From the NCBI GenBank assembly GCA_964641415.1, contig CAZXMW010000005.1:14760-78759 (forward strand): DNA of 64,000 nt. The letters are read 5' to 3'. Under the pieces are notes generated by a model that saw only the letters and a program-made list of their open reading frames with translations, did not search any database and was not told the origin of the DNA. The position numbers and the translations under genes were made by a program. Positions within the stretch are counted from its first letter, which is position 1. Each line of letters starts with the position of its first letter. Positions 5,643-59,749 of this stretch are shown in pieces. Origin of the DNA: an uncultured Thermoanaerobaculia bacterium (GTDB lineage: Bacteria; Acidobacteriota; Thermoanaerobaculia; Thermoanaerobaculales; Sulfomarinibacteraceae).

Positions 5643-6257
5643 ATGGCAGATGCCGATCGCACGATCACCATCGATGGCGTGACCCTCGCGCTGCAGGTGA
5701 CCCGAAAGCAGGTCAAGAACATCAACGCCCGGTTGGTCGGAGGAGAGCTTCGGATCAGCGCGCCGCCCGCGGTGCGGGATACCGAGCTCGAGCCGATCGT
5801 CCGCGAGCTCGGACGGCGGTTGCTCCGGCGCGAACGCGCGCACAACGTCAACGACGCGCACGACGCGCTGGCATTGGCGCAGCGCGTGGCGCTCCGGTTC
5901 GCCGATCCGCCGCGAATCGAGGCGGCGCGTTTCTCCACCAACCAGCGGGCGCGGTGGGGGAGCTACAGCGTCCGAACCCGGACCGTGCACCTCAATGCAG
6001 CTCTGCGCACCATGCCGCCATGGGTGCTCGAGGCGGTCGTCGCGCACGAGCTCGCGCACTCGTTTCACCCCGATCACTCGCCGGCGTTCTGGGCCCTGCT
6101 GCGCGGGATCTGCCCCGAGACCGACCGGGCACGCGCTTTCCTGGAGGGCGTCAGCTGGCTCGCCGGAAGCTGGAATCGGCTGCCGCCGCCGGAGCGCACC
6201 CAGCTCGGAGCATGGACCGAAGGTGGAGCAGACACGGCCGTGAACCCTGCGGGTTAG
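5643..6257 (+). CDS. YgjP-like (DUF45/M48 family) zinc metallopeptidase
   Basis: It contains the HEXXH motif HELAH followed by HSPAFW. The family-typical N-terminus reads ...VTRKQVKNINARL.... Confidence 0.7.
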   Translation: MADADRTITIDGVTLALQVTRKQVKNINARLVGGELRISAPPAVRDTELEPIVRELGRRLLRRERAHNVNDAHDALALAQRVALRFADPPRIEAARFSTNQRARWGSYSVRTRTVHLNAALRTMPPWVLEAVVAHELAHSFHPDHSPAFWALLRGICPETDRARAFLEGVSWLAGSWNRLPPPERTQLGAWTEGGADTAVNPAG

Positions 6258-6266
6258 AGTGGTCGG

Positions 6267-9200
6267 GTGGCAACGAACGTCCGTTTTCCAAGTGTCGCGA
6301 ACCGGCTCGTCTCGGTCCTCGTCGTGCTGTCGGTTGCAGGAGGGTCCGGCGCCGTGCGGGCGGCGCAGCCGGTGTTGGCCGAGTGCGACAGGATCGGTAC
6401 GACTGCCGCGGTGATCCAGCTGGTGCACGATTACGGCGACCTCTGTCTCGTGCGTGTCGTCGGCGAGCCGCCGATCGCGACCGCCCATCGCGTCCACCCG
6501 GTGGCGCCGGTCGGCGCCGTGGGCTTTCGTCACTGGAGCGGCACGACCGTCGACGCCGGCCTGCTGCCGGACGGCGCGCCGATCGTCCTTGGGCTCATCG
6601 GTCCGTTGGATCGAAGGTGGCGGGCCGAGCTGGAGGCGGCCGGGATCGAGATCCTGGCTCCGGCGCACCCGCACGCGCTGGTGATCCGCGGCGACCCCGC
6701 GGCCGCGGCGCGGGTCCTCGGGCTTGAAACCTCGGAGGGCCTGCCGGTCGTCGTGGGTGCCGCCGTGCTGCCCGCCGAAGCCCGGGTCCACCGGTCTCTG
6801 CTGCCGTTGGCGACCGGCTGGGATGCGGCCGACCGCCCCCGGTTGCGGGCGATCGGTTGGGACGGGAGACCGATTCCGGTCGAGACCAAAGACGCGGCGC
6901 CCGGTGGTCTCGCGCGGCTGCTCGACGAGCGCCCCGACATCGGCTACGTCGAGCCGGTGCTCGGTATCGAGCCCCACAACAACCTCGCAGGACGGTCCGA
7001 ACTGCTCGGCGCCGAGGAGCCGTGGAGCCTCGGCTTCGTGGGCGACGGGGTCACGGTGCTGCACAACGACTCGGGGGTGGATCTCGAGCATCCGGGGCTC
7101 GCGGGCGCGATCGTTGCCGCGGCCGGTCGCATGGAGTACTTCGACACGGCGCACGGGACCCACACCGCGGGGTCGATTGTCGGCCGGCCCGCGACGCCCG
7201 CGCCGGTCAACGCCTCGGGATGCGGCGACCTCGTGCCGGGTCTGGAGACGGCGTCCGGCATGGCGCCCGGCGCGGCCTTGGTCACCAATAACATCTTCAA
7301 CGGGGGCTTCGGGGAGATCCCCGAGATGATGGCCTGGGGCGCGGGTCGCGGGGCGCAGCTGAGCAACAACTCGTGGGGGCTGCTCGGGCAGACCGGTCCC
7401 GAGGTCGGCTACAGCGCCGCCGCGGCCGAGGTCGACGCGGCTGTCCGCGATGCGGATCCGGCGACCAGCGGAGACCAGCCGATGACGGTGTTCTTTTCGG
7501 CCGGCAACACCGGTCCCGATCCCGGTACGGTGACCTCTCCGGGAACGGCCAAGAACGCGATCACCGTCGGCGCGGTGCAGAACGCGCGCTGCGGGGCATG
7601 GGTGCCGGCTCAGCAGCCCGGCCCCGACCCGGAGGTGGTCGTCACGAGCTCGGGTCGCGGCCCGTCCCAACTGCGGATCAAGCCCGACCTGGTCGCCCCC
7701 GGCTCGGACGTGATGTCGCTTCAGTCGCAGGACGGTTATGCGATTCAGCTCTGGGACCTGGGCTGGACCGGGCCGCTGCTCGCCCTGAACACCGGCACCT
7801 CACAGGCGTGCGCTCTGGCCACCGGGGCCGGCGCTCTGCTGCACGAGATTCTCTGGAGACACGGCCGAAGCGGCCTGCGACCCAGCCCGGCCCTGCTCAA
7901 GGCGGCGCTGATCGCCACCGCCGATCGGCCGGGCGACGCCGTCGACTCCGACCGGGGCTGGGGCCGGATCGCGCTGTCGCCGGCGCCCACGACCGCCCTG
8001 CCGATCGTCGCGTTCGACCAGGGGGAGACGGCGCAGCTGGCAACCGGCGACCGATGGTCGACCGAAATCGCGGTGCGGTCCGCGGACCGCATCCTCGAGC
8101 TGGCGATGGTCTGGACCGACCCGCCCGGCGAGGCCGACGCCGACCACCCCCTCGTCAACGACCTCGACCTGTTGGTGACGATGCCGTCGGGCGCGGTGCT
8201 GCGCGGCAACGTCTTCGACGGCGGCTGGTCGCGGCCGGACCCGGGCGCGCTGCGCGACGGCGACAACAACGTCGAGGTGGTCCGGGTCGAGCAGCCCGAG
8301 GTCGGCAGCTGGACGGTCGAGGTGGTGGGGGTGGAGGTGGCGGTGCCGCCGGTCGGCCTCGACGGCCAGGACTTCGCCGTGGCAGCGGTCGGCGACGTCG
8401 GCGCCTGTGTCGACCAGCCGCTGCCGCCGGCGGCGGTTCAGGCGGCGCCGGCTGGCGACAACGCCATCGCGGTGACCTGGTCGCCGGTGTCGGGCGCCAC
8501 GCGGTACGAGGTGGCGCGCGCCATTCGTCCCGGCGGGCGCCCCTACCAGGTGGTCGCGACCATCGGCGGCGGGGTCACGTCGGTCGTGGACGCAGGGCTG
8601 TCGGGAGGCACGACCTACTACTACGTGGTGCGGGCCGAAGGGGAGTGCTGGTCGGCCGACTCGTACGAGGTGTCGGCAGCGGCCACCGGGCCGTGCACGA
8701 CGGTGCCCTTGTTCGCCGGCATCGCCTCGGTGACCGGCGTCCCGAGCGCCTCGTGCTCGCTGGAGCTCGCGTGGTCGCCGGCGACCGCCACCTGTCCCGC
8801 GCCTGTGAGCTACGACGTCTACCACGGTTCGACGCCCGACTTCGAGCCTTCCGAGACCAACCGGATCGTCGAGGGCCTGGACGCCGAGACCTGGCTCGAC
8901 CGTGGCCTCGAGCCCGACCGCGAGGCCTTCTACCTGGTTCGCGCGTCGCACGCCGGAAGCGGCGACGACGACGGCAACACCGTGCGGATCGGGGGCCGTC
9001 CCGTCGGACCGGACGAGGCCTACCTGGATCCGATCACCGCGGAGTTCCTGCACACCTGGAATCGCCTTCCCGGGTCCGCGGTCGACCCCGGATCCGAGCC
9101 GTGGCGCAGAACGGAAGATGACGCCTGGGACGGCCTTCGGTCCTGGTTCGTCGCGGACGAGCCCGGGGTCAAGGACCAGGTGCTGGAGCTGCGCGAGCCG

Positions 9201-10829
9201 ATCCCGCTGGTCGAGGGGCAGCCGCCGCGCCTCGAGTTCCACCACCGGATGCGGCTCGACCGGGGCCGCGACGGGGGACGGCTCGAGTACTCCACCAACG
9301 GCGGGCTCGACTGGCACGACATCCGTTCCGGGGACGGCCAGACCGTGCCCGACGGCCCCGGACGCTTCCTCGCCGGCGGTTACACCGACACGATCGCGGC
9401 CCCCGCCAACCCGCTTTATCTCGCGGACGCCTGGTCGGGCGACACCGCGGGCTGGGTCGATACGGTTGTCGATCTCTCCGACCTCGCCGGCCTCCGGATC
9501 CTGCTGCGCTGGCGCTTCGCCGGCGACGACACGCCGGGGGGCGACCGGGGCTGGTGGGTTGACGGTATCCGGCTGGTCGTCGATCGGGAGTGCCAGGACT
9601 GCATCCCGCCCGACCCGCCGCCGTGGCTGTGGTCGACCGCCACCGGGGACGGTGTCGAGCTGAGCTGGCCCGAGGCCCCCGGGGCTGCGACCTATCGGCT
9701 CGATCGCCGGAGCCGGTTGTCGAGCCCCGGCGAGGAGATCGCGAGGGTCGCGGCGCCGCAGACCTTCCACCTCGACGGCGAGGTCTCGGGTGGAACGACC
9801 TACTACTACACCGTCAGAGCCGACGACGGCTGCCTGTCGGACGAGTCGATCATGACGACGGTGACCGCCGTCGGACCGTGCACCCGGGCGCCGGCCTTCT
9901 GGGGTCTCGACGAGGTGGTCGACCGCCGCGAGCCAGGCTGCGCCCTCGACCTCGCCTGGCGGCCGGCCGAGCCGGGCTGTGCCGGCGCCGAGGTCCGGTA
10001 CCGGGTGTACCGGTCGCCGACCGCCGGCTTCGAGCCCGGGCCTGAGACCCTGATTGACGACGGCGTGATCGCAACCCGCGTTCGCGATCTCGGAATCGGC
10101 GACCGCGAGCGCGTCCACTACCGCGTCCGCGCGGTCGACGCCGTCAGCGGCGCCGAAGACGCCAACCCGGTGCTCCAGACCGGTTCGACCACCGGACCCG
10201 ACGAGCTTCTGTTCGAGGACTCGGTGGAGGACGGTGCGGACGGCTGGTGGACCGGCGTCGGGTCGGGCGCCGACAGCGGCACCGAGCCGTGGCGGGTGGT
10301 CGACGACCGCGCCTTCGACGGGACGCACTCCTGGTTCTGCGCCAACGAGCCGCGGGTCAAGGATCAGGTGGTCGGCCTGATCGAGCCGGTGGAGATCACC
10401 GGGTCGACGACGGTGCTCGCCTTGTCCCACCTGTTCGATCTGGAGCCGTTCTGGGACGGCGGCCGGCTCGAGTACTCGACCGATGGCGGCGCCACGTGGC
10501 AGGACATCCTGAGGGGCGGCGGCGGCGCCGTCGGCGACAACCCGAACCGGTTTCTTCGCGGCGGATACAGCGGGTTCGTCAGCTCCGGGACCGGCCATCC
10601 GTTCGGCGGTGAGCCGGCGTGGACCGGCTTCGTCGACGGCTGGTTCGAGACCGTTGTCGATCTCGGCGACTTCGCCGGGCTCACCGTCGCCCTGCGCTGG
10701 CGGCTCGGCTGCGACCGGTCGGACGCCCGGACCGGTTGGTGGCTCGACAACGTCCGGCTGATCCGGACCGTGGCGTGTGAGCCGATCGCGCCACCGGCTC
10801 CGCGAGCCGGTGGCGAACGCCGACCCTGA
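6267..10829 (+). CDS. Secreted S8 (subtilisin-like) serine protease with P-domain-like region, FN3-like domains and a duplicated C-terminal supermodule
   Basis: The catalytic triad context is HNDSGVD (Asp), HGTHTAGS (His) and TGTSQACA (Ser). There is an N-terminal signal peptide and a GTG start. Two roughly 390-aa repeats each end in GGRLEYST.GG..W.DI ... GWW.D..RL. Confidence 0.85.
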   Translation: MATNVRFPSVANRLVSVLVVLSVAGGSGAVRAAQPVLAECDRIGTTAAVIQLVHDYGDLCLVRVVGEPPIATAHRVHPVAPVGAVGFRHWSGTTVDAGLLPDGAPIVLGLIGPLDRRWRAELEAAGIEILAPAHPHALVIRGDPAAAARVLGLETSEGLPVVVGAAVLPAEARVHRSLLPLATGWDAADRPRLRAIGWDGRPIPVETKDAAPGGLARLLDERPDIGYVEPVLGIEPHNNLAGRSELLGAEEPWSLGFVGDGVTVLHNDSGVDLEHPGLAGAIVAAAGRMEYFDTAHGTHTAGSIVGRPATPAPVNASGCGDLVPGLETASGMAPGAALVTNNIFNGGFGEIPEMMAWGAGRGAQLSNNSWGLLGQTGPEVGYSAAAAEVDAAVRDADPATSGDQPMTVFFSAGNTGPDPGTVTSPGTAKNAITVGAVQNARCGAWVPAQQPGPDPEVVVTSSGRGPSQLRIKPDLVAPGSDVMSLQSQDGYAIQLWDLGWTGPLLALNTGTSQACALATGAGALLHEILWRHGRSGLRPSPALLKAALIATADRPGDAVDSDRGWGRIALSPAPTTALPIVAFDQGETAQLATGDRWSTEIAVRSADRILELAMVWTDPPGEADADHPLVNDLDLLVTMPSGAVLRGNVFDGGWSRPDPGALRDGDNNVEVVRVEQPEVGSWTVEVVGVEVAVPPVGLDGQDFAVAAVGDVGACVDQPLPPAAVQAAPAGDNAIAVTWSPVSGATRYEVARAIRPGGRPYQVVATIGGGVTSVVDAGLSGGTTYYYVVRAEGECWSADSYEVSAAATGPCTTVPLFAGIASVTGVPSASCSLELAWSPATATCPAPVSYDVYHGSTPDFEPSETNRIVEGLDAETWLDRGLEPDREAFYLVRASHAGSGDDDGNTVRIGGRPVGPDEAYLDPITAEFLHTWNRLPGSAVDPGSEPWRRTEDDAWDGLRSWFVADEPGVKDQVLELREPIPLVEGQPPRLEFHHRMRLDRGRDGGRLEYSTNGGLDWHDIRSGDGQTVPDGPGRFLAGGYTDTIAAPANPLYLADAWSGDTAGWVDTVVDLSDLAGLRILLRWRFAGDDTPGGDRGWWVDGIRLVVDRECQDCIPPDPPPWLWSTATGDGVELSWPEAPGAATYRLDRRSRLSSPGEEIARVAAPQTFHLDGEVSGGTTYYYTVRADDGCLSDESIMTTVTAVGPCTRAPAFWGLDEVVDRREPGCALDLAWRPAEPGCAGAEVRYRVYRSPTAGFEPGPETLIDDGVIATRVRDLGIGDRERVHYRVRAVDAVSGAEDANPVLQTGSTTGPDELLFEDSVEDGADGWWTGVGSGADSGTEPWRVVDDRAFDGTHSWFCANEPRVKDQVVGLIEPVEITGSTTVLALSHLFDLEPFWDGGRLEYSTDGGATWQDILRGGGGAVGDNPNRFLRGGYSGFVSSGTGHPFGGEPAWTGFVDGWFETVVDLGDFAGLTVALRWRLGCDRSDARTGWWLDNVRLIRTVACEPIAPPAPRAGGERRP

Positions 10830-12352: not shown

Positions 12353-14167
12353 TCAGGGTTGACCGGGCGCTTGGCGGCGAACCGGCGGGACGACGATCTC
12401 GGTCACAGCTCGTCGCAGATCGTCATCCGCGATGAGCTCGAGCAGAGCCGGGTTGGTCCGGCACACCCTCGCCAGATGGACGATCGCCTCGCCGCGTAGA
12501 TTGCGTGCGTCGAGCCGGTTGCCGGTGTCGCGGCGTCTGCGATCCTGGTCGGCCAGCGCGAGTCCGAGACCGAACTCGGCTTCCTCGTGGGGCCACAGCC
12601 CCATGGCTCGACGGAATGCGGTCTCGGCGCCGACGCCGTCGCCGCGCGCCATCCTGGCCTGACCGACCATTCGCCACAGCCACGGTTGGGCGCTCGCCAG
12701 CGGCTCGATCCGCGCCAGGATCTGACCTTCCACGGCGGCTGCGTGGGTCGCCCGGCGGCTCGGCTCGAGCCGCTCGATGGTGGCGAGCGCGTGCCCCAGG
12801 CCACCCCGCCAGAGATTGACGATCAGCTTGTGAAGCTGCCAGTAGACGCCGGCCAGTACCAGTGCGATGGCAACCGCGACGCCGACCCGGCGGCGCCAGG
12901 CAGCCGGCTCGACGACGATCTCCCGGCCGCCGGACAGCAGGCGGCCGAGCACGAGGACCGTCGGCACGAGCCCGACCGCGAGATGGGTCGGGAAGTGAAA
13001 CAGGAGGAAGGGCAGAAATGCGGCCACCGCAAGAGCGGGCAGCGGGTCGCCGCGCGGTTTGGCCCGGAGCAGCGCGGCCGCCAAGGCGGCCATCCAGAGC
13101 AGTCCCAGAACGCCGAGCTCGGCGGTCATTTGCAGCGGGTCGCAGTGGGCGAACCGGAAGTGGGTGGCGAACTCGGCGCGGTTGCCCACCGCGCCGGTTC
13201 GGTCCAAGAAGGCGAGTCGGCTCGGGTAGAAGGAGTGGGTGAAGTTGGCGGCGCCGGTTCCGATCAGCGGTCGGCCGCGGACCATCTCGCCGGCGGCGGT
13301 CCAGCCGTCGCTGCGGGCCGACAGCAGGAAGTACCAGTCACCCATCTCGAGCCTTCTGATCTGCCGCCGAATCCGGTCGTCGAGCCCGGTGGCGAGCCCG
13401 ACGGCGATCAGCGCCAGGACGGTGGCTGCGGCCACCACCCACAGCCGGCGCGATCGTCGCTGAACCAGCCAGAGACCCCAGACCAACACGACCGCAACCA
13501 GCGCAGTCATGGTCTGGGACACGACCGCCGCTCCGGTCAGCAGCACGGCGAGGAAGTGTCGGAAGCGCCTCTCGCCGGGTGAGCACTCCGGTGCGGCCAG
13601 CACCAGCGGGAGCAGCAGAACGGCAGCCGCCGCGAGGTCGGCCGGGTTACCGGTGAGCCCGGTGAGCGCGAGGCGCCCGGTGGGTCCGCTGAGTCCGATC
13701 GCGAACACCGCAGCGCCGGCCGCCTGGGCGAACATCACCAGTGCCGACACTGCGGCGCCGATAGCCGCAGCGTCGACCAGCCGGCGGTGCTCCGGGCCCC
13801 CGGTGGTTGCGAGCCAGAGCGCTCCGGACACCCAGATCGCCGACGACAAGGCGGCGTCGAGGGCGAGGCGCGGACTGCCGCTCCACAGCATTGACAGCGC
13901 CTGCAGGACGGGCAGGGCGAGCAGCACAAGGGCAGCGGGCGACCAGCGCAGCGTCAGCCGCCCACGGGCGAAGCCGGCGGCGGCGCTGAGCCCGACGACG
14001 GCCAGCAGCGCGGACAGCGCGACAACTTCCTTGGGCGCTCGAAACGGACTCGCCGCACCGGGCAGCACCACGATCTCGACGAGCAGAAAGGCCGCCGCGA
14101 GCAGCCACACGCTTTTCCTCACGGTCGCCGGTGTCGGCGGGGGAGTCGCTCGCTGTTTCCGTGCCAC
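12353..14167 (-). CDS. O-antigen ligase (Wzy_C)-like polytopic membrane protein with C-terminal TPR-like region
   Basis: There are about 10 TM helices and the motif GTGAANFTH...FAHCDPLQMTAELG. The start is uncertain: GTG 14167 or GTG 14122. The annotated 1180-aa ORF extends antisense over the POT gene and is not credible upstream. Confidence 0.6.
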   Translation of the reverse strand: MARKQRATPPPTPATVRKSVWLLAAAFLLVEIVVLPGAASPFRAPKEVVALSALLAVVGLSAAAGFARGRLTLRWSPAALVLLALPVLQALSMLWSGSPRLALDAALSSAIWVSGALWLATTGGPEHRRLVDAAAIGAAVSALVMFAQAAGAAVFAIGLSGPTGRLALTGLTGNPADLAAAAVLLLPLVLAAPECSPGERRFRHFLAVLLTGAAVVSQTMTALVAVVLVWGLWLVQRRSRRLWVVAAATVLALIAVGLATGLDDRIRRQIRRLEMGDWYFLLSARSDGWTAAGEMVRGRPLIGTGAANFTHSFYPSRLAFLDRTGAVGNRAEFATHFRFAHCDPLQMTAELGVLGLLWMAALAAALLRAKPRGDPLPALAVAAFLPFLLFHFPTHLAVGLVPTVLVLGRLLSGGREIVVEPAAWRRRVGVAVAIALVLAGVYWQLHKLIVNLWRGGLGHALATIERLEPSRRATHAAAVEGQILARIEPLASAQPWLWRMVGQARMARGDGVGAETAFRRAMGLWPHEEAEFGLGLALADQDRRRRDTGNRLDARNLRGEAIVHLARVCRTNPALLELIADDDLRRAVTEIVVPPVRRQAPGQP

Positions 14168-16422: not shown

Positions 16423-18363
16423 TCATTGGCTCTTGCCCTTGAGGCGGTCGAGCGCCCGGTGGAGGCGCCACGCCTTGGTGCGCTCCATGGCCCCGATCAG
16501 CGCACCGAGCCGCTCGATTTCGGCGTGCAACCGCTCGATCTCGGACGCTCGTTCGTCGCACGCGATCTGCAGGGCCGTCTCCCGCTCGCCGAGACTCTCG
16601 ACCTCCGTTCGAAGCTCCCCGATCAGCTGTTGGCGCTCGCCGATGGCGGCGTTGGCCGCGGCGAGGTCGGCGCCGTGCCGCCTGACCTCGGCGGTCAGGC
16701 GTTCGCGTTCGGCGCGCAATGCCTCGACCTCGCCGTTGAGGCGGTGAGAGGCGTCGGCCGCCGCCGCGTCGGCAGCGCGTACCTTCGCGATGTCGCGCCG
16801 CGCGGCGTTCGCCGCCTCGCCGGCGGTCACCGCCTCGGCGCGCAGGGTGTCGACGACCCGGGCGACGACCTCGGGCCCGATCAGGTCGGCGTGACGGCCG
16901 ATGACCGCCGCCTTGAGGCGAAGGAAGTCCGCCCGACGGCGGGGGCTCTCGCCGAGCACATGGTGAGCAGCGCCCCGAAAGTGCCGGTACTCGGCGGTGA
17001 CCCGAGGCAGGTGGTGGAACGGAACCAGCGCGGCGAGCCGGATCAGGAAGTCCCAGTCCTCGAAGAACTCGAGCTCGGGGTCGAAGGGTCCCGCCCGGCG
17101 CGCCAAGGACAGGTCCATGATCAGGGTGTTGAACGGAATGTAGTTGTCGACGAGGAGCAGCTCGGGGTCGAAGTCTCTGCTGTACGGAAGTCGTCGTTCG
17201 ACCTCGCTCCAGCCGCCCTCCGGGCCGAGCTCGTAGATGCCGACGGCGGCGTCGGTGTAGGCGACGCGGACGTCCGCCGCGGCCACCAGACCGACCAGGG
17301 TGGCGATGTGCTCGGGCTCGACGAGATCGTCGTCGTCGAGAAAGCAGAGATAGGCCCCGGTGGCCGCGTCGACCCCGGCGTTGGCGGCGGCGGCCCGGCC
17401 CAGGGTGCGGCCCGTTTCGACCCGGACGACCGGGAAGGGAAAGTCGGCCGGCACCGTGGGCTCGGCGCCGCCGTCGTTGACCAGGACGATCTCAAGCCGG
17501 CGGTAGCTGCTGGCGGAGAGACTTGCCAGAGCCTCGGCGAGCAGGTCCGGGCGGTCCTTGGTTCGGACGACGACGCTGACGGTCGGACCCGCGGTGTTTG
17601 CCGCGAGCTCGACCATTGCCCCGAGCCGACGTGCCAGCTCGGTCGGGCCCTGGGTCACGATGTCGTTCAGGCCGATCTCGCAGTAGGCCTCGGCGGCGAC
17701 GGTGCCGGTCGGCAGCGACAGTGCCCGGAATCGGCGCATCCCGAGGGCAGCCTCTCGGTAGTTGTGCAGCTCGAGTTGGCTCGCGTGGGCCTCGATGGCG
17801 GCTGCCAGCCGGTCGAGCTCGTCGCTGACGTCGATCAGCAGGTTGGGATAGCTCGGGTGGTTGACCTCATAGAGCAGAATCCGGCACCCGGCCATGATCT
17901 CGTCGAGCTCGGTGCCGCCGCGCAGGGAGGTCAGGGCGAGATGGAGGGCAGTGAAGGCCGCCCGGTGATCGGTGGTGATCTCGCAGGGCGACACCGACAG
18001 AATGAGGTCAGGACGAACGTCGCGGATCGCTCCGGAGGCCGTTTCGGCGGCGGTGTCCACCCAGGCGGCGAGCTCACCGTCAGGGATCGACAGGACCTCC
18101 ATCCGGGAGATGCCCAGGACGCCGAGTCCCTGTCGGGCCTCGGCGCGGCGGCGCGCCCCATAACCCTCTCGGTCGGTGGTGACCTCGCTGCCCCCCGACG
18201 AATCGGTCAGGTAGACGATGCGGATGTCGGCGCCCCGGTCGGCGAGCTGGACGAGCAGACCGCCGCAGCCGAGGACCTCGTCGTCGAAGTGTGGGGCGAG
18301 CACCAGCACGCGTCGGGCGCCGACCGTCGTCGTGGTCGTCGGGGGCATCGGGTCGAGCTGCAT
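16423..18363 (-). CDS. Fusion protein: PIG-L/LmbE-type deacetylase, GT2 glycosyltransferase and a C-terminal coiled coil
   Basis: The PIG-L part reads VLVLAPHFDDEVLGCGG. The GT2 part reads VSVVVRTKDRPDLL...VLVNDGG ... FLDDDD. A heptad-rich tail is present. ATG 18363 precedes the PIG-L domain. Confidence 0.8.
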   Translation of the reverse strand: MQLDPMPPTTTTTVGARRVLVLAPHFDDEVLGCGGLLVQLADRGADIRIVYLTDSSGGSEVTTDREGYGARRRAEARQGLGVLGISRMEVLSIPDGELAAWVDTAAETASGAIRDVRPDLILSVSPCEITTDHRAAFTALHLALTSLRGGTELDEIMAGCRILLYEVNHPSYPNLLIDVSDELDRLAAAIEAHASQLELHNYREAALGMRRFRALSLPTGTVAAEAYCEIGLNDIVTQGPTELARRLGAMVELAANTAGPTVSVVVRTKDRPDLLAEALASLSASSYRRLEIVLVNDGGAEPTVPADFPFPVVRVETGRTLGRAAAANAGVDAATGAYLCFLDDDDLVEPEHIATLVGLVAAADVRVAYTDAAVGIYELGPEGGWSEVERRLPYSRDFDPELLLVDNYIPFNTLIMDLSLARRAGPFDPELEFFEDWDFLIRLAALVPFHHLPRVTAEYRHFRGAAHHVLGESPRRRADFLRLKAAVIGRHADLIGPEVVARVVDTLRAEAVTAGEAANAARRDIAKVRAADAAAADASHRLNGEVEALRAERERLTAEVRRHGADLAAANAAIGERQQLIGELRTEVESLGERETALQIACDERASEIERLHAEIERLGALIGAMERTKAWRLHRALDRLKGKSQ

Positions 18364-18418
18364 CGTGGTTGAGATAGTACACCGCTTCGACGACCAACAC
18401 GCGGGGGAACGCCGGTCA

Positions 18419-18579
18419 CCTGAGGTGAACGGTTCTGCCGGATGAGATGTGCCGAGATCGTGATGGGCTGATGGTTGCCGAAAACGGAGGCATACCCTTC
18501 GACGTGTCGAGTCTTTTCGCAGCCATCCAGGGCGCAGGAAATGTGGTGCAGATCGCCGGTGAGAATCGCTCATCTCAGG
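18419..18579 (+). repeat. Copy A of a dispersed, roughly 160-nt repeat family with 10-nt terminal inverted repeats
   Basis: It aligns end to end with 31191-31350, with about 30 mismatches and one 1-nt indel by eye. The termini are cctgaggtga and tcatctcagg. Confidence 0.85.
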
Positions 18580-18627
18580 TCTCTGCTACCATCCGCCCAT
18601 GGTCGAGACCGTGGCCGGGAGGCGTCG

Positions 18628-30563: not shown

Positions 30564-31184
30564 ATGAGCCCCTTGCGTCCCGGAGGCGGGCGGATCGAGA
30601 TCGTCGCCGGACCGATGTTCTCCGGCAAGTCCGAGGAGCTGATCCGGTTGTTGCGACGTGCCGCCATCGCGCGCCAGCGGATCCAGGTCTTCAAGCCGGC
30701 GCTCGACAACCGCTACGCCGAAGAGGACGTCGTGTCGCACTCTCAGTGGCGGATCCCGTGCCAGGTGGTGGAGAAGGCGGACGAGATTCTGGTCCATCTC
30801 GATCCGCGGACCGAGGTCGTGGGAATTGATGAGGGACAGTTCTTCGACGATCAGTTGCCGAAGGTCTGCGGCCATCTCGCTGACCTCGGCAAGCGCGTGG
30901 TCGTGGCGGGTCTCGACATGGACTACCGGGGGGCGCCCTTCGGGCCCATGCCCGAGCTGCTCGCCATCGCCGAGGACGTCCGGAAGATCCACGCGATCTG
31001 CACCCGCTGCGGCGCGCCGGCGAGCTACACGCAGCGCCTGACCCGAGACGAGCAGCGGGTCCTGGTCGGCGCCACCGATGTCTACGAGGCCAGGTGCCGC
31101 CGGTGCCACGAGCCCGACGGTGGCGCCGGGGACCGGGCGCGCTGGTTGTTCCCGCCGAACCAGGAGACCCCCGAAAGCGGTTGA
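30564..31184 (+). CDS. tdk: Thymidine kinase
   Basis: The P-loop is [11 protein letters not shown], the Walker B-like segment is [10 protein letters not shown], and the zinc ribbon is C.RCG...C..C. Confidence 0.85.
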
Positions 31185-31190
31185 CTGCCG

Positions 31191-31350
31191 CCTGAGGTGA
31201 GCGGTTCTGCTGGATGAGGTGCGCCACAATCCCGATACGCTGGTGGCTGCGAAAAGCGGAGGCATGCCCTTGGGTATGTCGAGTGTTTTTGCGGCCTTTC
31301 AGGGCGCGGGAGACCGGTGCAGATCGTCGGTGAGGATCGCTCATCCCAGG
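31191..31350 (+). repeat. Copy B of the roughly 160-nt repeat family
   Basis: It begins 6 nt after the tdk stop and ends 18 nt before the kinase GTG. The termini are cctgaggtga and tcatcccagg. Confidence 0.85.
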
Positions 31351-31368
31351 CGCCGGTATCATGGACCG

Positions 31369-34017
31369 GTGACCATCGGTGATCTTCATGCCGGCACGGT
31401 TCTCGGGCGCTATCGGCTCGAGGTTTGCATCGGCGAGGGCGGCATGGGCTCGGTGTGGCGGGCGCGCGACGAGGTGCTCGAGCGGGATGTCGCGCTCAAG
31501 GCGCTGCCCCGGCATGTGGTCGTCGACCCGGCGGCGGAACGTCGGTTCGAGCGCGAGGCGCGCGCCATGGGCCGGCTCCAGCATCCCAACGTGGTCGGCA
31601 TCTACGACATCGGACGCGGCGATCCGGGAACCGGAGGAGAGATCCCCTTTCTGGTCATGGAGCTGGTTCGCGGTCGGCCGCTTCATGACGTGATCGCGGC
31701 CGGACGGCCCGGCGTGGGCGAGGTTCTGAGGTGGATGGAGCAGGTTGCCCGGGCGCTCGCCGAGGCCCACGCCGCCGGCATCGTTCACCGCGATCTCAAG
31801 CCGTCCAACATCATGGTCGACGAAACCGGCCACGTGGTCGTGCTCGACTTCGGTCTCGCGCGGCTGACCCGGCAAGACGGCGAGGTCACCGAGGAGACCC
31901 TGACCACTCCGGGCATGGTCCTCGGCTCGTGTCCCTACATGGCGCCGGAGCAGGCGCTCGGCCGGGAGGTGACGCCGGCGAGCGATCTCTTCGCCTTCGG
32001 CGCGGTGCTCTACGAGGCGCTGACCGGGACACGGGCGTTCCACGGCGACACTCCGATGCGGGTGCTCCAGGCCGTGGTGCGCAGCGAGCGGGTTCCGATG
32101 GAGGACCTCGCGCCCGGCCTGCCGACCGCGGTCGTCGAGATCGTCGACCGCTGTCTCGAGCGGGACAGCTCCCGACGCTATCCGAGCGCCGGCGCGCTGG
32201 CCGCCGATCTGGCGGCGGCGGGCGCGATCGAGGCATCGTCGCCGTCGGGTGTTCTCACGACAGTCGTCAGCCACGGTCCGGAGGTTGTGGCGAGTGTGCT
32301 GCGCCGCCGGCGCCGACGTCGCGGTTTCGCCGGCGCCGTGGCGGTCGGGCTTGTCGCCGGCACAGCCGCCGGCCTGTGGTTCGGACGGCGCGGTTACGAG
32401 CCGATCCGCCCGGACCCCGGGCGCTGGACGATGACCGAACTCTACCGGGGCAGCGGGGACCTCGACCGTCCGGCATGGAGCCCGGGAGGCGACAGCCTGG
32501 CGGTCGCCCGGACCGAGGGCGACACCGGCGTCGTGGTGGTGGTTCCGGTGAGCGGTGACGACCCGAGAGTGCTGGTCCGGGGCGGCAGCCACGAAGTGCC
32601 GAGTCGGCCGAGCTTCTCGCCGGAAGCAGCGGCGGTTGCGGTGTCGGTCATCAGTGGCAGCTCTCAATCGGTTCACGTGGTCCCGGCCGTGGGAGGGCCA
32701 CCGGCGTACGAGATCGAGAACGCGCTGCACGGCGTCTGGCTCGACCGTTCGACCCTCGCCTTCTCCCGGCTGGTCGATGGAAGGTCGGCGATCTGGACCG
32801 TCGAGCTGGAAACCGGGCGCGAGGGACTGCTCGTCGACGAGCGCGACGGCCTGTCGTGGTGGGAAGTGGTTCCGCGACCGGGTGGCGGCCTGGCGCTGGT
32901 CGGTGGCGCGACCGACATCGATCCCGGGATCTTCGTCAGCGACGCCGCCGGAGATCGAGTCGACCAGTGGCTGGCGCCGGGGCGCAAGGTACAGGGCGCC
33001 GACTGGGCCCCCGGCGGAGCGGTTCTCGTGGCCTCGGTGGACGGCCAATTGGTCAAGCTCGACGGTACCCGGGTGAGCCCCCTGCTCCCCGATTCGGACG
33101 AGGTCTTCCAGTTTCCTGCGTTTTCCGACGACGGCCGGCTCGCGGCCGTGCAGAACCGCCGGACCTACGACATCATCAGCGTCGATCCGGACGGTGGCGG
33201 TTGGGAATGCCTGGTGTGCGACAGGCCTCGATCGGGGTGGGGCAGCGCGGGATCCGATGGTTCGGTTGTCTACCGGTTGACGGTCGGGGACAGCTCCCGC
33301 GTATATCTGCGCGCGCCCGGCATCGAGGCGCGCGCGCTGACGACGCCGGACGAAATGGCCTCGTGTCCGGTGATGTCACCGGACGCGATCCGCGTCGCCT
33401 ATCTGGCTCGTGTCGAAGGCAGCACCGAGCTTCGGGTCCGGCCCCGGTCGGGTGGCGATCCGGTGACCCTGGCGCGTGACGTCGAGAGCTCCGAGCTCGT
33501 CGCATGGTCGCCCGACGGGCGCAGCATCGCCTACGCCGGCGGCCGGCCTCTTCAGGTATTCGTCGTGTCGACGGCCGGCGGGACTCCGCGGGCCGTCAGC
33601 CCGAGCGGCGGCGACTATCCGAGCTGGAGCCCGGATGGGCGGTTGATCGCATTCGCGGTCTGGAACGAAGCGTCGGACCCTGCCCAGGGAACGTGGGTGG
33701 TCGCAAGCGGCGGCGGCGAACCGCGCAAGGTCGGTGAGGCGCCGACGCGAGCGGTGTGGGATCCGGTCACCGGCGAGCTTCTGCAGCTTCGTCGGTCGGC
33801 CGACGGCGCGGTGCTCGAGCTGTGGAGCGCCGATTCCGGGCGATGGAGATGGCGCCGACGCGCGGAGCTGGACATCGGGGTGAGGCCTCCGATCCAGATC
33901 GAGTATCTGCCGCTGTCGACCGATTGGCGCACCGGACGACTCGTGATGAACCGGAGGTCGGGCACGGGGCGGTTGGTCGTCTTTGACGGCATCGAGCCGG
34001 AGCGCTGGGAAAGGTGA
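31369..34017 (+). CDS. Ser/Thr protein kinase with TM segment and C-terminal TolB-like (PD40/WD40-like) beta-propeller repeats
   Basis: The kinase motifs are GEGGMGSVWRA, VALK, HRDLKPSNIM, DFGLA and APE. The C-terminus has repeated SPDG/WSPDG propeller motifs. Confidence 0.85.
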   Translation: MTIGDLHAGTVLGRYRLEVCIGEGGMGSVWRARDEVLERDVALKALPRHVVVDPAAERRFEREARAMGRLQHPNVVGIYDIGRGDPGTGGEIPFLVMELVRGRPLHDVIAAGRPGVGEVLRWMEQVARALAEAHAAGIVHRDLKPSNIMVDETGHVVVLDFGLARLTRQDGEVTEETLTTPGMVLGSCPYMAPEQALGREVTPASDLFAFGAVLYEALTGTRAFHGDTPMRVLQAVVRSERVPMEDLAPGLPTAVVEIVDRCLERDSSRRYPSAGALAADLAAAGAIEASSPSGVLTTVVSHGPEVVASVLRRRRRRRGFAGAVAVGLVAGTAAGLWFGRRGYEPIRPDPGRWTMTELYRGSGDLDRPAWSPGGDSLAVARTEGDTGVVVVVPVSGDDPRVLVRGGSHEVPSRPSFSPEAAAVAVSVISGSSQSVHVVPAVGGPPAYEIENALHGVWLDRSTLAFSRLVDGRSAIWTVELETGREGLLVDERDGLSWWEVVPRPGGGLALVGGATDIDPGIFVSDAAGDRVDQWLAPGRKVQGADWAPGGAVLVASVDGQLVKLDGTRVSPLLPDSDEVFQFPAFSDDGRLAAVQNRRTYDIISVDPDGGGWECLVCDRPRSGWGSAGSDGSVVYRLTVGDSSRVYLRAPGIEARALTTPDEMASCPVMSPDAIRVAYLARVEGSTELRVRPRSGGDPVTLARDVESSELVAWSPDGRSIAYAGGRPLQVFVVSTAGGTPRAVSPSGGDYPSWSPDGRLIAFAVWNEASDPAQGTWVVASGGGEPRKVGEAPTRAVWDPVTGELLQLRRSADGAVLELWSADSGRWRWRRRAELDIGVRPPIQIEYLPLSTDWRTGRLVMNRRSGTGRLVVFDGIEPERWER

Positions 34018-39117: not shown

Positions 39118-39149
39118 GGAGATCGTCCGCGAGAATCGCCATCTCAAGG
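39118..39149 (+). repeat. Partial copy F (3' module only) of the roughly 160-nt repeat family
   Basis: gagatcgtccgcgagaatcgccatctcaagg compares with copy A cagatcgccggtgagaatcgctcatctcagg. Confidence 0.65.
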
Positions 39150-46674: not shown

Positions 46675-46727
46675 TCCTCAGATGAGCGACTGTCACCGGC
46701 GATCTGCACCAATCTGGACGGTTGCGA
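46675..46727 (-). repeat. Partial copy C (3' part, inverted) of the roughly 160-nt repeat family
   Basis: The plus strand cctcagatgagcgactgtcaccggcgatctgcacc is the near reverse complement of the copy A 3' end. There is an internal deletion relative to A. Confidence 0.7.
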
Positions 46728-46752
46728 CGATCGCGTGAGGCCGCCCGGTCTG

Positions 46753-57209: not shown

Positions 57210-59660
57210 ATGATTCGCAAACTCGAGTCCGAAGAACTGGCGTGGTCCTGCCCGGATGAGTGGCTCAGCTGGCAGGCGTCGAACGAAATCGAGCCGGCGT
57301 CCACGATCGTCGGTCAGGATCGCGCGGTCGAGGCCATCGCGTTCGGCCTCGCCATGCGAGGAATCGGCTACAACGTTTTCGTCACCGGCCTGTCCGGAAC
57401 CGGTCGACTGACCACCATCAAGCAGTTCCTCGAGCACATCGACGGCGATCCGACGATTCCGGACGACGTCTGCTTCGTTCACAACTTCCGCAACCCCGAG
57501 GAACCGAATGCGCTGTTCATCGAGGCCGGCGCCGGCCGTCGACTCCGGGACGGAATGGAAAACCTGATCGAAGAGCTCGCCGAGAACCTGCCCAAAATCC
57601 TCAACGACAAGGAGATTCGGGCGAGATTGGATCGAGCGGTCAAGAGCTTCCAGCGGCAGGAACGGGAGCTGGTGGAGAGCTTCGACGAGGAGGTCAAGAA
57701 GGCCGGCTTCTCGATGGTCCAGATCCAGTCCGGACCGATCACTCGTCCCGAGATCATGCTCCTGGTCGAAGGCGACCCGGTGGCGGTCGATGACCTCGAG
57801 TCTCTGGTGGAGGACGGCAAGATCGAGGCCGACCGGGTGAAGACCCTGACCGAGAAGCACCGTGAGCTGTCGGGAAAGCTGCGCGAGATCTTCGAGCAGG
57901 TCGGCGAGCTGCGGCGCCAGGCACAGCAGGAGATCGAGCGGGTCCGGGCCGAGCTCCTGCACCCGACCTTCTCCGAGGCGGTGAGGCGGGTTTTGGTCGA
58001 GGTCGGCGACGAGCGCGCCCAGCCCTACCTCGAGGCGGTGCAACAGGATCTCGAAGAGAATGTCCACGTGTTCGTGGTCGATGACGACGAACAGAAACGA
58101 GACCGTTTCATCCGTTGGCGCGTCAACCTTGCAGTCGACAACTCGGAGCTCGACGGGCGGCCGGTCGTCATGGAGACCGAGCCGACCTACACCAATTTAT
58201 TCGGCACCATCGAGCGCTCGTTGCTGCCGTCGGGAGAGGGCACGACCTCGTTCATGCGGATCCGGGCTGGCTCGATGCTGCGGGCGAACGGCGGATACCT
58301 GGTGGTCAACGCCGAAGACGTGCTCATGGAACCTCGGGTTTGGCCTGGTCTGAAGCGCGCATTGCGCTACCGGCGGGTACAGATCCAGGCCTGGGAGAGC
58401 GTGGTCTTCGGCGCGGCGGTCCTCAAGCCGGAGCCGGTTCCGCTCGACGTCAAGGTGGTGGTCATCGGCGACCGCGCGATCTACGATCTCCTGTACCGGC
58501 GGGATGCTGATTTTCCCAAGATCTTCAAGGTGCTGGCCGACTTCGAGCGCGTCATCGCGAAGTCGAAGGACCACGCTGCGGACATTCTCTCAGTCCTCCA
58601 GAAGGTGGCGACCGAGGAGGACCTGCTGCCTTTCCATCGGAGCGGGATGGCGGCCGTCTTGGAACATGCGGTGTATCTCGGAAGCTGGCGCCGGCGATTC
58701 TCGAGCCGGTTTTCGGACCTCGCCGACATTCAACGCGAGGCGGACTACCATGCTCGCCTGGACAATGCCGAGGCGATCGAACGCCGGCATGTCATGGCGG
58801 CCAAGCAGGCGCGAAACCGCCGCCATGGACTGTCCGAGGACCGGACCCACGACCTCATCGCAGACGGTGTGGTGCACGTTGCGACCGACGGCGAGACCGT
58901 CGGCCAGGTCAACGGTCTCGCGGTGTACGACCTCGGTCACCACCGGTTCGGCAAGCCGTCGCGGATCACGGCCAGGGTCGGTTTGGGTCGGGAAGGGGTC
59001 ATCAACATCGAGCGGCAGGCGGGCCTGTCCGGGCCGACCCACGACAAGGGTGTGAGCATTCTGACCGGCTTCCTGCGCGGCACCTTTGCTCGAAGGGTCC
59101 CGCTCACCATGGCGTGCTCGGTGACCTTCGAGCAGAGCTACGGCGGCATCGACGGCGATTCGGCGTCGTCGACCGAGGTCTACGCCATTCTGTCGGCGCT
59201 GTCGGGTCTGCCGTTGAAGCAGGGCATCGCGGTGACCGGTTCCGTCGATCAGTACGGACGGGTCCAGGCCATCGGAGGGGTCAACGAGAAGATCGAGGGG
59301 TTCTTCCGAGTCTGCTCGAGCCGAGGGTTGACCGGCGCCGAGGGGGTGATGATCCCGTCGAGCAACGTCGGAGATCTCCACCTCGCCGACGAGGTCACCG
59401 AGGCGGTCGAGGCGGGCCGGTTCAACATCTGGTCGGTTGACAGCGTGGAGGACGGGGTCGAGCTGCTGGCCGGTGTTCCGGCGGGGCAGTGGTCGGACGA
59501 CGAAGGCTGGTCCGAGGACGGAGTGTACGGCCGTTGCGAAGCCAGGCTGGAGGAGATGGCGAGGCTGCTGCGTCGGTCAATCAAGGACCCGGAAACGAGC
59601 GGGACCGGCGATGACGACGGAAGTTCTCGGGGCGGTCGCGACGAAGAGACTGATGCCTGA
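57210..59660 (+). CDS. Lon-like (S16) protease with degenerate AAA-like domain (LonC/COG1067-like)
   Basis: The Lon protease domain reads GIDGDSASSTEVYAILSAL (Ser) and GGVNEKIEGF (Lys). The P-loop-like segment TGLSGTGRLTT lacks the canonical Lys. Confidence 0.75.
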   Translation: MIRKLESEELAWSCPDEWLSWQASNEIEPASTIVGQDRAVEAIAFGLAMRGIGYNVFVTGLSGTGRLTTIKQFLEHIDGDPTIPDDVCFVHNFRNPEEPNALFIEAGAGRRLRDGMENLIEELAENLPKILNDKEIRARLDRAVKSFQRQERELVESFDEEVKKAGFSMVQIQSGPITRPEIMLLVEGDPVAVDDLESLVEDGKIEADRVKTLTEKHRELSGKLREIFEQVGELRRQAQQEIERVRAELLHPTFSEAVRRVLVEVGDERAQPYLEAVQQDLEENVHVFVVDDDEQKRDRFIRWRVNLAVDNSELDGRPVVMETEPTYTNLFGTIERSLLPSGEGTTSFMRIRAGSMLRANGGYLVVNAEDVLMEPRVWPGLKRALRYRRVQIQAWESVVFGAAVLKPEPVPLDVKVVVIGDRAIYDLLYRRDADFPKIFKVLADFERVIAKSKDHAADILSVLQKVATEEDLLPFHRSGMAAVLEHAVYLGSWRRRFSSRFSDLADIQREADYHARLDNAEAIERRHVMAAKQARNRRHGLSEDRTHDLIADGVVHVATDGETVGQVNGLAVYDLGHHRFGKPSRITARVGLGREGVINIERQAGLSGPTHDKGVSILTGFLRGTFARRVPLTMACSVTFEQSYGGIDGDSASSTEVYAILSALSGLPLKQGIAVTGSVDQYGRVQAIGGVNEKIEGFFRVCSSRGLTGAEGVMIPSSNVGDLHLADEVTEAVEAGRFNIWSVDSVEDGVELLAGVPAGQWSDDEGWSEDGVYGRCEARLEEMARLLRRSIKDPETSGTGDDDGSSRGGRDEETDA

Positions 59661-59684: not shown

Positions 59685-59749
59685 CCTCGGGTGAGCGATT
59701 CTCACGGGAAGTGAAATCTGCAGCACATCTGGGCGCGAAAAATCCACAC
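59685..59749 (-). repeat. Partial, diverged copy D (inverted) of the roughly 160-nt repeat family
   Basis: The plus strand cctcgggtgagcgattctcac...atctgcagcacat matches the reverse complement of copy A (cctgagatgagcgattctcac...atctgcaccacat). Confidence 0.6.

Follow-up and report, generated by a model that had tools for sequence, protein, structure and literature searches.

A dispersed ~160-bp inverted-repeat family of Thermoanaerobaculales-like Acidobacteriota, most probably a MITE with 5-bp target-site duplications

Dispersed intergenic imperfect palindromes of ~100-160 bp, such as the ERIC/IRU and Correia repeats, occur in either orientation and can alter the expression or stability of neighbouring transcripts; for ERIC and bcr1, activity at the RNA level on neighbouring mRNAs has been proposed. 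REP/REPIN and IS200/IS605-derived elements are not known to duplicate their target or to have terminal inverted repeats, and the target duplications of the IS1380 family range from 4 to 5 bp. Non-autonomous DNA transposons of the MITE kind have sizes of about 50-800 bp (PMC11602168). The bcr1 repeat of the Bacillus cereus group is ~155 bp long, with 5-bp direct repeats and a hairpin kept by compensatory changes; it is transcribed, and related strains differ in where they carry it (PMC3184786). ISEcp1 has target duplications of 5 bp (e.g., TATGA; PMC2887853).

The window (the whole 64-kb stretch of DNA that was analysed) has a GC content of 67%, and its closest protein relatives carry the labels Thermoanaerobaculales, Candidatus Sulfomarinibacteraceae or Holophagae MAGs. 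A tRNA gene at 1205-1276 is its sole Rfam match at gathering score. Two sequences in the window, designated A and B, belong to a family of ~160-bp repeats that has ~130 full copies in Thermoanaerobaculales- and Sulfomarinibacteraceae-type Acidobacteriota MAGs and in metagenomes. We read A and B as old insertions of a ~160-bp non-autonomous DNA transposon (MITE) and a third, shorter sequence, C, as what is left of one half of such an element, with a probability of roughly 0.93. The copies and their surroundings are as follows (window coordinates; gene identities are from Pfam).

16423-18363, minus strand: PIG-L/GT2 gene, left neighbour of A, divergent from it
18414..18418, unstranded: left flank of A, GGTCA (2/5 match to the right flank)
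18419..18579, plus strand: copy A, read as a full-length MITE of 161 bp; hairpin (nhmmer with the family model, E = 8e-39)
18580..18584, unstranded: right flank of A, TCTCT, overlapping the start of the block CTCTGCTACCATCCGCCCATGG
18581-18602: 22-nt block upstream of GT1, also at 2954-2975 of locus L187 and upstream of GT1 in locus L188
18628-19908, plus strand: group-1 glycosyltransferase (GT1) gene, right neighbour of A
31182-31184: stop codon of the thymidine kinase gene tdk, left neighbour of B
31186..31190, unstranded: left target-site duplication of B, TGCCG
31191..31350, plus strand: copy B, read as a full-length MITE of 160 bp; hairpin (nhmmer E = 2e-39)
31351..31355, unstranded: right target-site duplication of B, CGCCG (4/5 match to the left)
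31369: GTG start of the Ser/Thr kinase-PD40 gene, right neighbour of B
46676..46731, minus strand: copy C, read as a remnant with the 3' arm only (family model positions 103-168; nhmmer E = 6.5e-9), antisense between its neighbours, a DUF4388 gene and dnaK

We found that A and B align end to end with a single 1-nt indel at 78.9% identity (0.794 on family columns), a match that has a blastn E-value of 2.5e-34 within the 64-kb window, and that they differ by 26 transitions and 7 transversions. These figures bear out the preliminary description of this DNA, in which the two had been judged about four-fifths identical over their full length and most of their differences to be transitions. It had also placed both copies in the sense orientation 49 nt and 18 nt upstream of a start codon, and this is correct: A ends 49 nt before GTG 18628, the start of a protein 100% identical to public P0121 over the full 426 aa, and B stops 18 nt short of GTG 31369, the start that the kinase orthologue in locus L182 uses as well. 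Regarding the 10-nt terminal inverted repeat noted at that time, the end sequences stand (both copies start with CCTGAGGTGA, and the 3' end is TCATCTCAGG in A and TCATCCCAGG in B), but the length does not, the inverted repeat being far longer and the whole element a single hairpin. A and B each fold as one long imperfect hairpin, with RNA minimum free energies of -75.4 and -89.3 kcal/mol, respectively (z = -5.1 and -6.3 against dinucleotide shuffles). Since the arms are mutual inverted repeats over nearly their full length, either strand folds into a long hairpin.

The family was recovered with two independent patterns. A 23-nt pattern from the 3' arm matched 60 loci in contigs representing one genome per species; 8 of these were chance-like bare matches in other phyla and the rest were copies in Acidobacteriota MAGs, ~50 of them full-length, with at least 17 and at least 13 loci in two single MAGs. 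The 5'-arm pattern matched more than 120 metagenome contigs and brought 86 additional full copies. The further copies beyond the window, on which the preliminary description had staked its repeat family, are thus present in MAGs and metagenomes alike. Full copies range in length from 157 to 162 bp, only 4 of 128 lie inside a called gene, and many copies of the family are placed at contig ends. Median identity to the consensus is 0.89, and A (0.81) and B (0.77) rank with the most diverged copies; the two have 15 derived positions in common, and their nearest relatives are Sulfomarinibacteraceae copies. Mean identity between copies is 0.91 within one MAG vs 0.83 between MAGs, a difference that speaks for amplification within individual genomes. 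Conservation peaks in both terminal ~45 nt, and it does so also in the set that was not ascertained on the end in question. A blastn search of a plasmid collection with the consensus gave just one 49-nt match at chance level, and two pattern scans of viral contigs gave none. The family is absent from Rfam, no mention of it was found in the MITE literature searched, and it seems to be undescribed.

Several arrangements of copies were observed in passing. At locus L178 two full copies (9824-9987 and 9990-10151) stand head to tail with 2 nt between them. In two pairs of loci from different MAGs that have the same right flank, one locus carries a full copy and the other its last 40-50 nt (L044 7339-7505 vs L052 885-936, and L033 157-322 vs L032 5013-5055). 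Solo 3' arms such as copy C, for which the blastn match is 92% over 36 nt, seem to be a common decay product. Weak 3'-arm-like matches in the window (D at 39120-39146, plus strand; E at 59692-59728, minus strand; and 57305-57323, plus strand; blastn E = 0.008-0.1) were rejected as copies on account of falling below the family nhmmer threshold and, since the family model does not detect them, are probably chance matches or very old remnants.

A target-site duplication of exactly 5 bp, of consensus T-N-N-N-A, borders the copies, T at position 1 and A at position 5 of the duplicated pentamer being found in most copies. Perfect 5-bp flanks occurred at 11 of 46 copies in the genome set plus window (11 of 44 after re-alignment) vs 0.7% of permuted partners, and at 31 of 84 copies in the metagenome set, which was ascertained independently, vs 0.6% of permuted partners; flank identity at 3, 4 or 6-9 bp gave no signal in either set. 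At locus L182, where the tdk protein is 92% identical to that of the window, the tdk-kinase spacer reads TGA-C-CGTCG-GTATCATGGGCGG-GTG, and that of the window reads TGA-C-TGCCG-(160 bp)-CGCCG-GTATCATGGACCG-GTG. Since the L182 spacer is uninterrupted and has a single CGTCG pentamer, L182 is an empty site for B. A contig with a 93%-identical tdk has a tdk-kinase spacer of 19 nt. The third-codon identity of tdk between the window and L182 is 0.65, and the private divergence of B therefore fits an insertion after the split, followed by neutral decay.

The flanks of A match at two of five positions, which means that the duplication has decayed or that the left side has been rearranged. In the relatives L187 and L188 an nhmmer search of the regions upstream of GT1 found no copy at site A, and the block CTCTGCTACCATCCGCCCATGG, which the right flank of A overlaps, is conserved upstream of GT1 in relatives without the MITE. 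Homology between these two loci and the window starts at 18581, 2 nt past the end of A, and the left neighbourhood of the site also differs in relatives (e.g., the left neighbour in L187). The presumed mobility of A thus rests on its membership in the family and on its absence from relatives with a differing left neighbourhood. The 22-nt block CTCTGCTA(C/A)CATCCG(C/G)CCATGG is conserved 5' of GT1 in three genomes, starts 2 nt after A and includes TGCTACCAT, an extended -10-like motif; if this block is a promoter, A sits just 5' of it and hence is probably outside the GT1 transcript. No sigma-70-like promoter was seen in or beside A or B. The same intergenic place between the PIG-L/GT2 gene and GT1 holds a different, AT-rich palindromic repeat, AATTATGAATTATGAAT...ATTCATCATTCATCATT, in L188 (~2080-2270) and in L189, which has the same sequence; its occurrence there in a relative suggests a recurrent landing site for small repeats.

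With respect to neighbouring genes, the orientation of the 128 copies showed no significant bias: 37 were sense and 48 antisense next to gene starts, 34 and 43, respectively, next to gene ends, and 13 and 23 between co-directional genes. These counts are approximate, as the gene calls were crude, the caller having been trained on mixed loci and having mis-called the GT1 region so that the GT1 gene beside A was missed. The genes neighbouring family copies are unrelated to one another.

Shorter derivatives of ~88 and 44 bp exist as well. The 44-nt mini-elements consist of two 18-nt ends plus the loop GCCGGATG and have a common junction at an internal direct repeat, CCGGATGAG/CCGGTGAG, which marks this repeated motif as a deletion hot spot giving rise to them. 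The mini-element of L167 has a perfect duplication on its two sides (TCTTA/TCTTA), and some deletion derivatives still carry 5-bp duplications; the 44- and ~88-nt forms either move as such or are repeated deletion products. They were found at these loci.

44-nt mini-elements: L066 ~9103-9146; L083 14146-14189; L155 ~14036-14079
44-nt mini-elements, continued: L167 ~5678-5721; L175 1287-1330
~88-nt forms: L060, L085, L171 and L180

No autonomous element with the ends of the family was found in ~1.2 Mb of copy-rich sequence plus the window. Apart from A, B and the remnant C, the window itself contains no element bearing such ends, and a tblastn search with the ISEcp1 transposase against the loci and the window, which make up a small part of the carrier genomes, returned nothing better than E = 4.9; both results agree with the earlier remark that no transposase is nearby. 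Mid-contig matches to the left end only (L110, L113, L120 and others) turned out to be truncations beside ordinary genes, or 44-nt mini-elements. Pairs of end-like 19-mers 0.6-4 kb apart were considered as a partner element and rejected; they enclose histidine kinase, hydrolase or ETF genes, or represent two separate copies. The ends of the MITE are CCTAAGATGAGCG...CGCTCATCTTAGG, which read CCTA...TAGG, and those of ISEcp1 in pC15-1a are CCTAGATTCTACGT...ACGTGGAATTTAGG; the outermost bases alone agree, being CCTAAGAT...ATCTTAGG in the MITE and CCTAGATT...AATTTAGG in ISEcp1. Since the searches yielded no autonomous element, the transposase family is assigned solely from the similarity of ends and duplication, which points to an IS1380-like transposase as the probable enzyme moving the MITE in trans.

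Other classes of element were weighed against this assignment. A Tn3-derived miniature element (TIME) would also account for the length of the duplication, 5-bp duplications being made by Tn3-family elements as well (PMC2887853), but the 38-bp Tn3 inverted repeat in pC15-1a is GGGGTCTGACGCTCAG..., which begins GGGG and is unlike CCTAAGATGAGCG. REPINs and the ends of IS200/IS605 elements form hairpins, as our element does; a REP/REPIN or an IS200/IS605-type palindrome is nevertheless contradicted by the 5-bp duplication and the terminal inverted repeats, both of which are present here, and we consider origins from any of these three sources to be very unlikely. Very unlikely as well, in our estimate, is a cis-regulatory RNA, that is, a riboswitch-like or attenuator leader in which CTCATC would toggle between alternative helices for control of the downstream gene. 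One might be drawn to it by the sense orientation of both window copies shortly 5' of a start codon, the strong fold of A and B, a long hairpin that is backed by covariation, and the terminator-like apex hairpin of B followed by a T run. Among the 128 copies, however, sense copies do not predominate at gene starts (37 vs 48 antisense), the neighbouring genes are unrelated, the copies carry 5-bp target duplications, the orthologous leaders of the tdk-kinase pair and GT1 (L182, L187 and L188) carry no copy, and the T run is missing from one whole subfamily. Searches of 4227 Rfam families (including Acido-1, Acido-Lenti-1 and 6S RNA) left A, B and a near-consensus copy unmatched at E <= 10, the best scores of these three being 13-15 bits vs thresholds of 43-103 bits. 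Covariation among the pairing partners of CTCATC is confined to the terminal pairing, where two pairs showed coordinated double changes, in 33 and 7 sequences, respectively; compensated cells number 1 in the local GGTGAG/CTCATC helix and 0 in the 5' GGATGAG/CTCATC helix, each of which has many broken pairs.

These results also settle how the interpretive part of the preliminary description is to be taken. The three partners that it had listed for CTCATC are indeed present in the sequence, but coordinated change speaks for the terminal one only, and the switch-like arrangement built on them finds no support in the alternative helices, which do not covary. Among the identities that it had put forward, the MITE is upheld by the 5-bp duplications, the lack of orientation bias and the empty sites for A and B; the regulatory or riboswitch leader is contradicted by the occurrence in both orientations, next to unrelated genes, by the absence from orthologous leaders and by the Rfam result; and a small RNA family finds no support. 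Its statement that the element resembles no known riboswitch class accords with the Rfam scan, which found no family for it, whether at gathering score or at E <= 10. It had further held that a plain MITE would show clear target-site duplications, random orientation relative to genes and no covariation; the duplications (5 bp) and the absence of a sense bias are as it foresaw, whereas covariation along the hairpin is strong, as it can be in a MITE, bcr1 being an instance (PMC3184786). It is the duplications, the occurrence in both orientations, the empty sites, the lack of an Rfam family and the switch helices that do not covary which together lead us to regard the element as a MITE.

The apex of the hairpin was the subject of two side observations. 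In B an apex hairpin (window 31261-31280) followed by GAGTGTTTTT matches a terminator-like scan; a T run follows the apex in most subfamilies, the JAADFN subfamily having CATCGTCGC instead, and a terminator-like apex is present in certain subfamilies only. We also considered a coding role for the apex, which contains GGAGG...ATG and in B is in frame with the kinase, and rejected it: the ATG and the Shine-Dalgarno sequence are missing in whole subfamilies, and there is a frameshifting indel between A and B.

The covariation itself calls for comment. The two consensus arms agree perfectly over their first 18 nt and at 58 of 80 positions in all. Across the family, 19 of 52 pairs had changed on both sides vs 9.2 +/- 1.6 in shuffles, and the cells changed on both sides numbered 102 vs 31 in shuffles; none of 500 shuffles reached the observed values, and slid controls for pair changes were far lower than observed. 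In the central helix 10 of 18 pairs had changed on both sides, and most compensatory events separate subfamilies (e.g., GCGACGAGCGG...CATCGTCGC vs GCGAAAAGCGG...CATTTTCGC). Since a DDE transposase should not need complementary arms, an additional constraint or a repair process acts on the family, and the likeliest source would be selection on active master copies or arm-to-arm templated repair of them. That the MITE instead has a transcript whose function serves the host or the element, for example as an RNase III/E substrate that alters the stability of neighbouring mRNAs or as a source of antisense sRNA, we consider unlikely. Such a transcript would fit with a hairpin kept by compensatory changes over its whole length, including the central helix (10 of 18 pairs), and with the precedent of bcr1, a transcribed repeat of ~155 bp that has 5-bp direct repeats and compensatory changes of its own (PMC3184786). 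The plus strand, moreover, folds better than the minus strand in 127 of 128 copies (-94.6 vs -74.3 kcal/mol), but this bias is inherited from one ancestral consensus, so that the copies are not 128 independent observations and it is not strong evidence. Likewise, the arm mismatches of the consensus on the plus strand comprise 7 G.U and 1 A.C, an asymmetry that is not significant (p = 0.07), and the rare pair variants show no preference for G.U, 43 leading to G.U and 49 to A.C; since the two are equally common, inserted copies appear to be free of structural constraint as they decay. Relative to transcription the copies are oriented at random or with a slight antisense excess, and no conserved promoter or terminator was seen. 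It is doubtful, too, that the full-length hairpin itself is selected, with a single-stranded plus strand (RNA or DNA) needed for mobilisation by the partner transposase or as a processed, structured RNA with effects on neighbouring transcripts; if this is true, the uncultured clade would carry a repeat family that is RNA-active in the manner of ERIC and bcr1, with minimal mobile forms of 44 nt.

For the MITE, the reading we prefer, the course of events would be as follows. A transposase encoded elsewhere would recognise the CCTAAGATGAGCG...CGCTCATCTTAGG ends, make a 5-bp staggered cut at T-N-N-N-A and insert the element, and repair of the stagger would leave the 5-bp duplication; the enzyme would most likely belong to the IS1380 family, the bacterial relatives of piggyBac. 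Amplification would have proceeded separately in each genome of the Thermoanaerobaculales/Sulfomarinibacteraceae-like clade of Acidobacteriota, and deletion between internal direct repeats would have spawned the ~88- and 44-bp derivatives. In the window, B presumably landed in the ~19-nt tdk-kinase spacer and A just 5' of the promoter-like block of the glycosyltransferase operon, and both would have decayed since then, apparently neutrally. Any effects on neighbours would be side effects of insertion and not a conserved regulatory design; they might include a strong hairpin in the tdk-kinase co-transcript and a displacement of upstream promoter DNA at GT1.

The practical consequences concern assembly and annotation. 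Copies of the family break MAG assemblies of Thermoanaerobaculales-like Acidobacteriota, many of them being at contig ends, and its strong fold and its covariation could lead one to take the family for a regulatory RNA; where the sequence is an inverted-repeat transposon, covariation by itself is no proof of such an RNA. A window ORF at 31219-34017 runs in frame from within copy B into the Ser/Thr kinase gene, and automatic annotation could lengthen the N-terminus of the kinase by ~50 MITE-derived residues. The family model permits masking, and insertion polymorphisms can be used as strain markers. A MITE is an ordinary kind of element, and the family opens no long-standing question; it adds to a poorly known phylum a clean MITE case, its target being 5 bp (T-N-N-N-A) and its ends CCTA...TAGG.

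By comparison with known systems, the element has the features of a MITE: it is small, has no transposase gene or conserved ORF, has terminal inverted repeats beyond the minimum of 10-15 bp for such elements and a duplication of fixed length, and its copies are dispersed, mainly intergenic and polymorphic for presence or absence at orthologous sites. Acido-1 and Acido-Lenti-1 are structured non-coding sequences of the same phylum, and the MITE has no match to either. The ERIC/IRU and Correia repeats are enterobacterial and neisserial and differ from it in sequence, host and target duplication (TA in Correia). With ISEcp1 and the IS1380 family, prokaryotic relatives of piggyBac, it shares the 5-bp duplication and target sites with A/T at the ends, and its own ends, like those of ISEcp1, read CCTA...TAGG, although the likeness extends to ~5-8 terminal bases and ISEcp1, at 1.6 kb, encodes a transposase whereas the MITE encodes nothing. 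With bcr1 it shares the size, the 5-bp flanking repeats and a long hairpin with compensatory changes, a likeness taken from the description of bcr1, and the Acidobacteriota family belongs to a different phylum.
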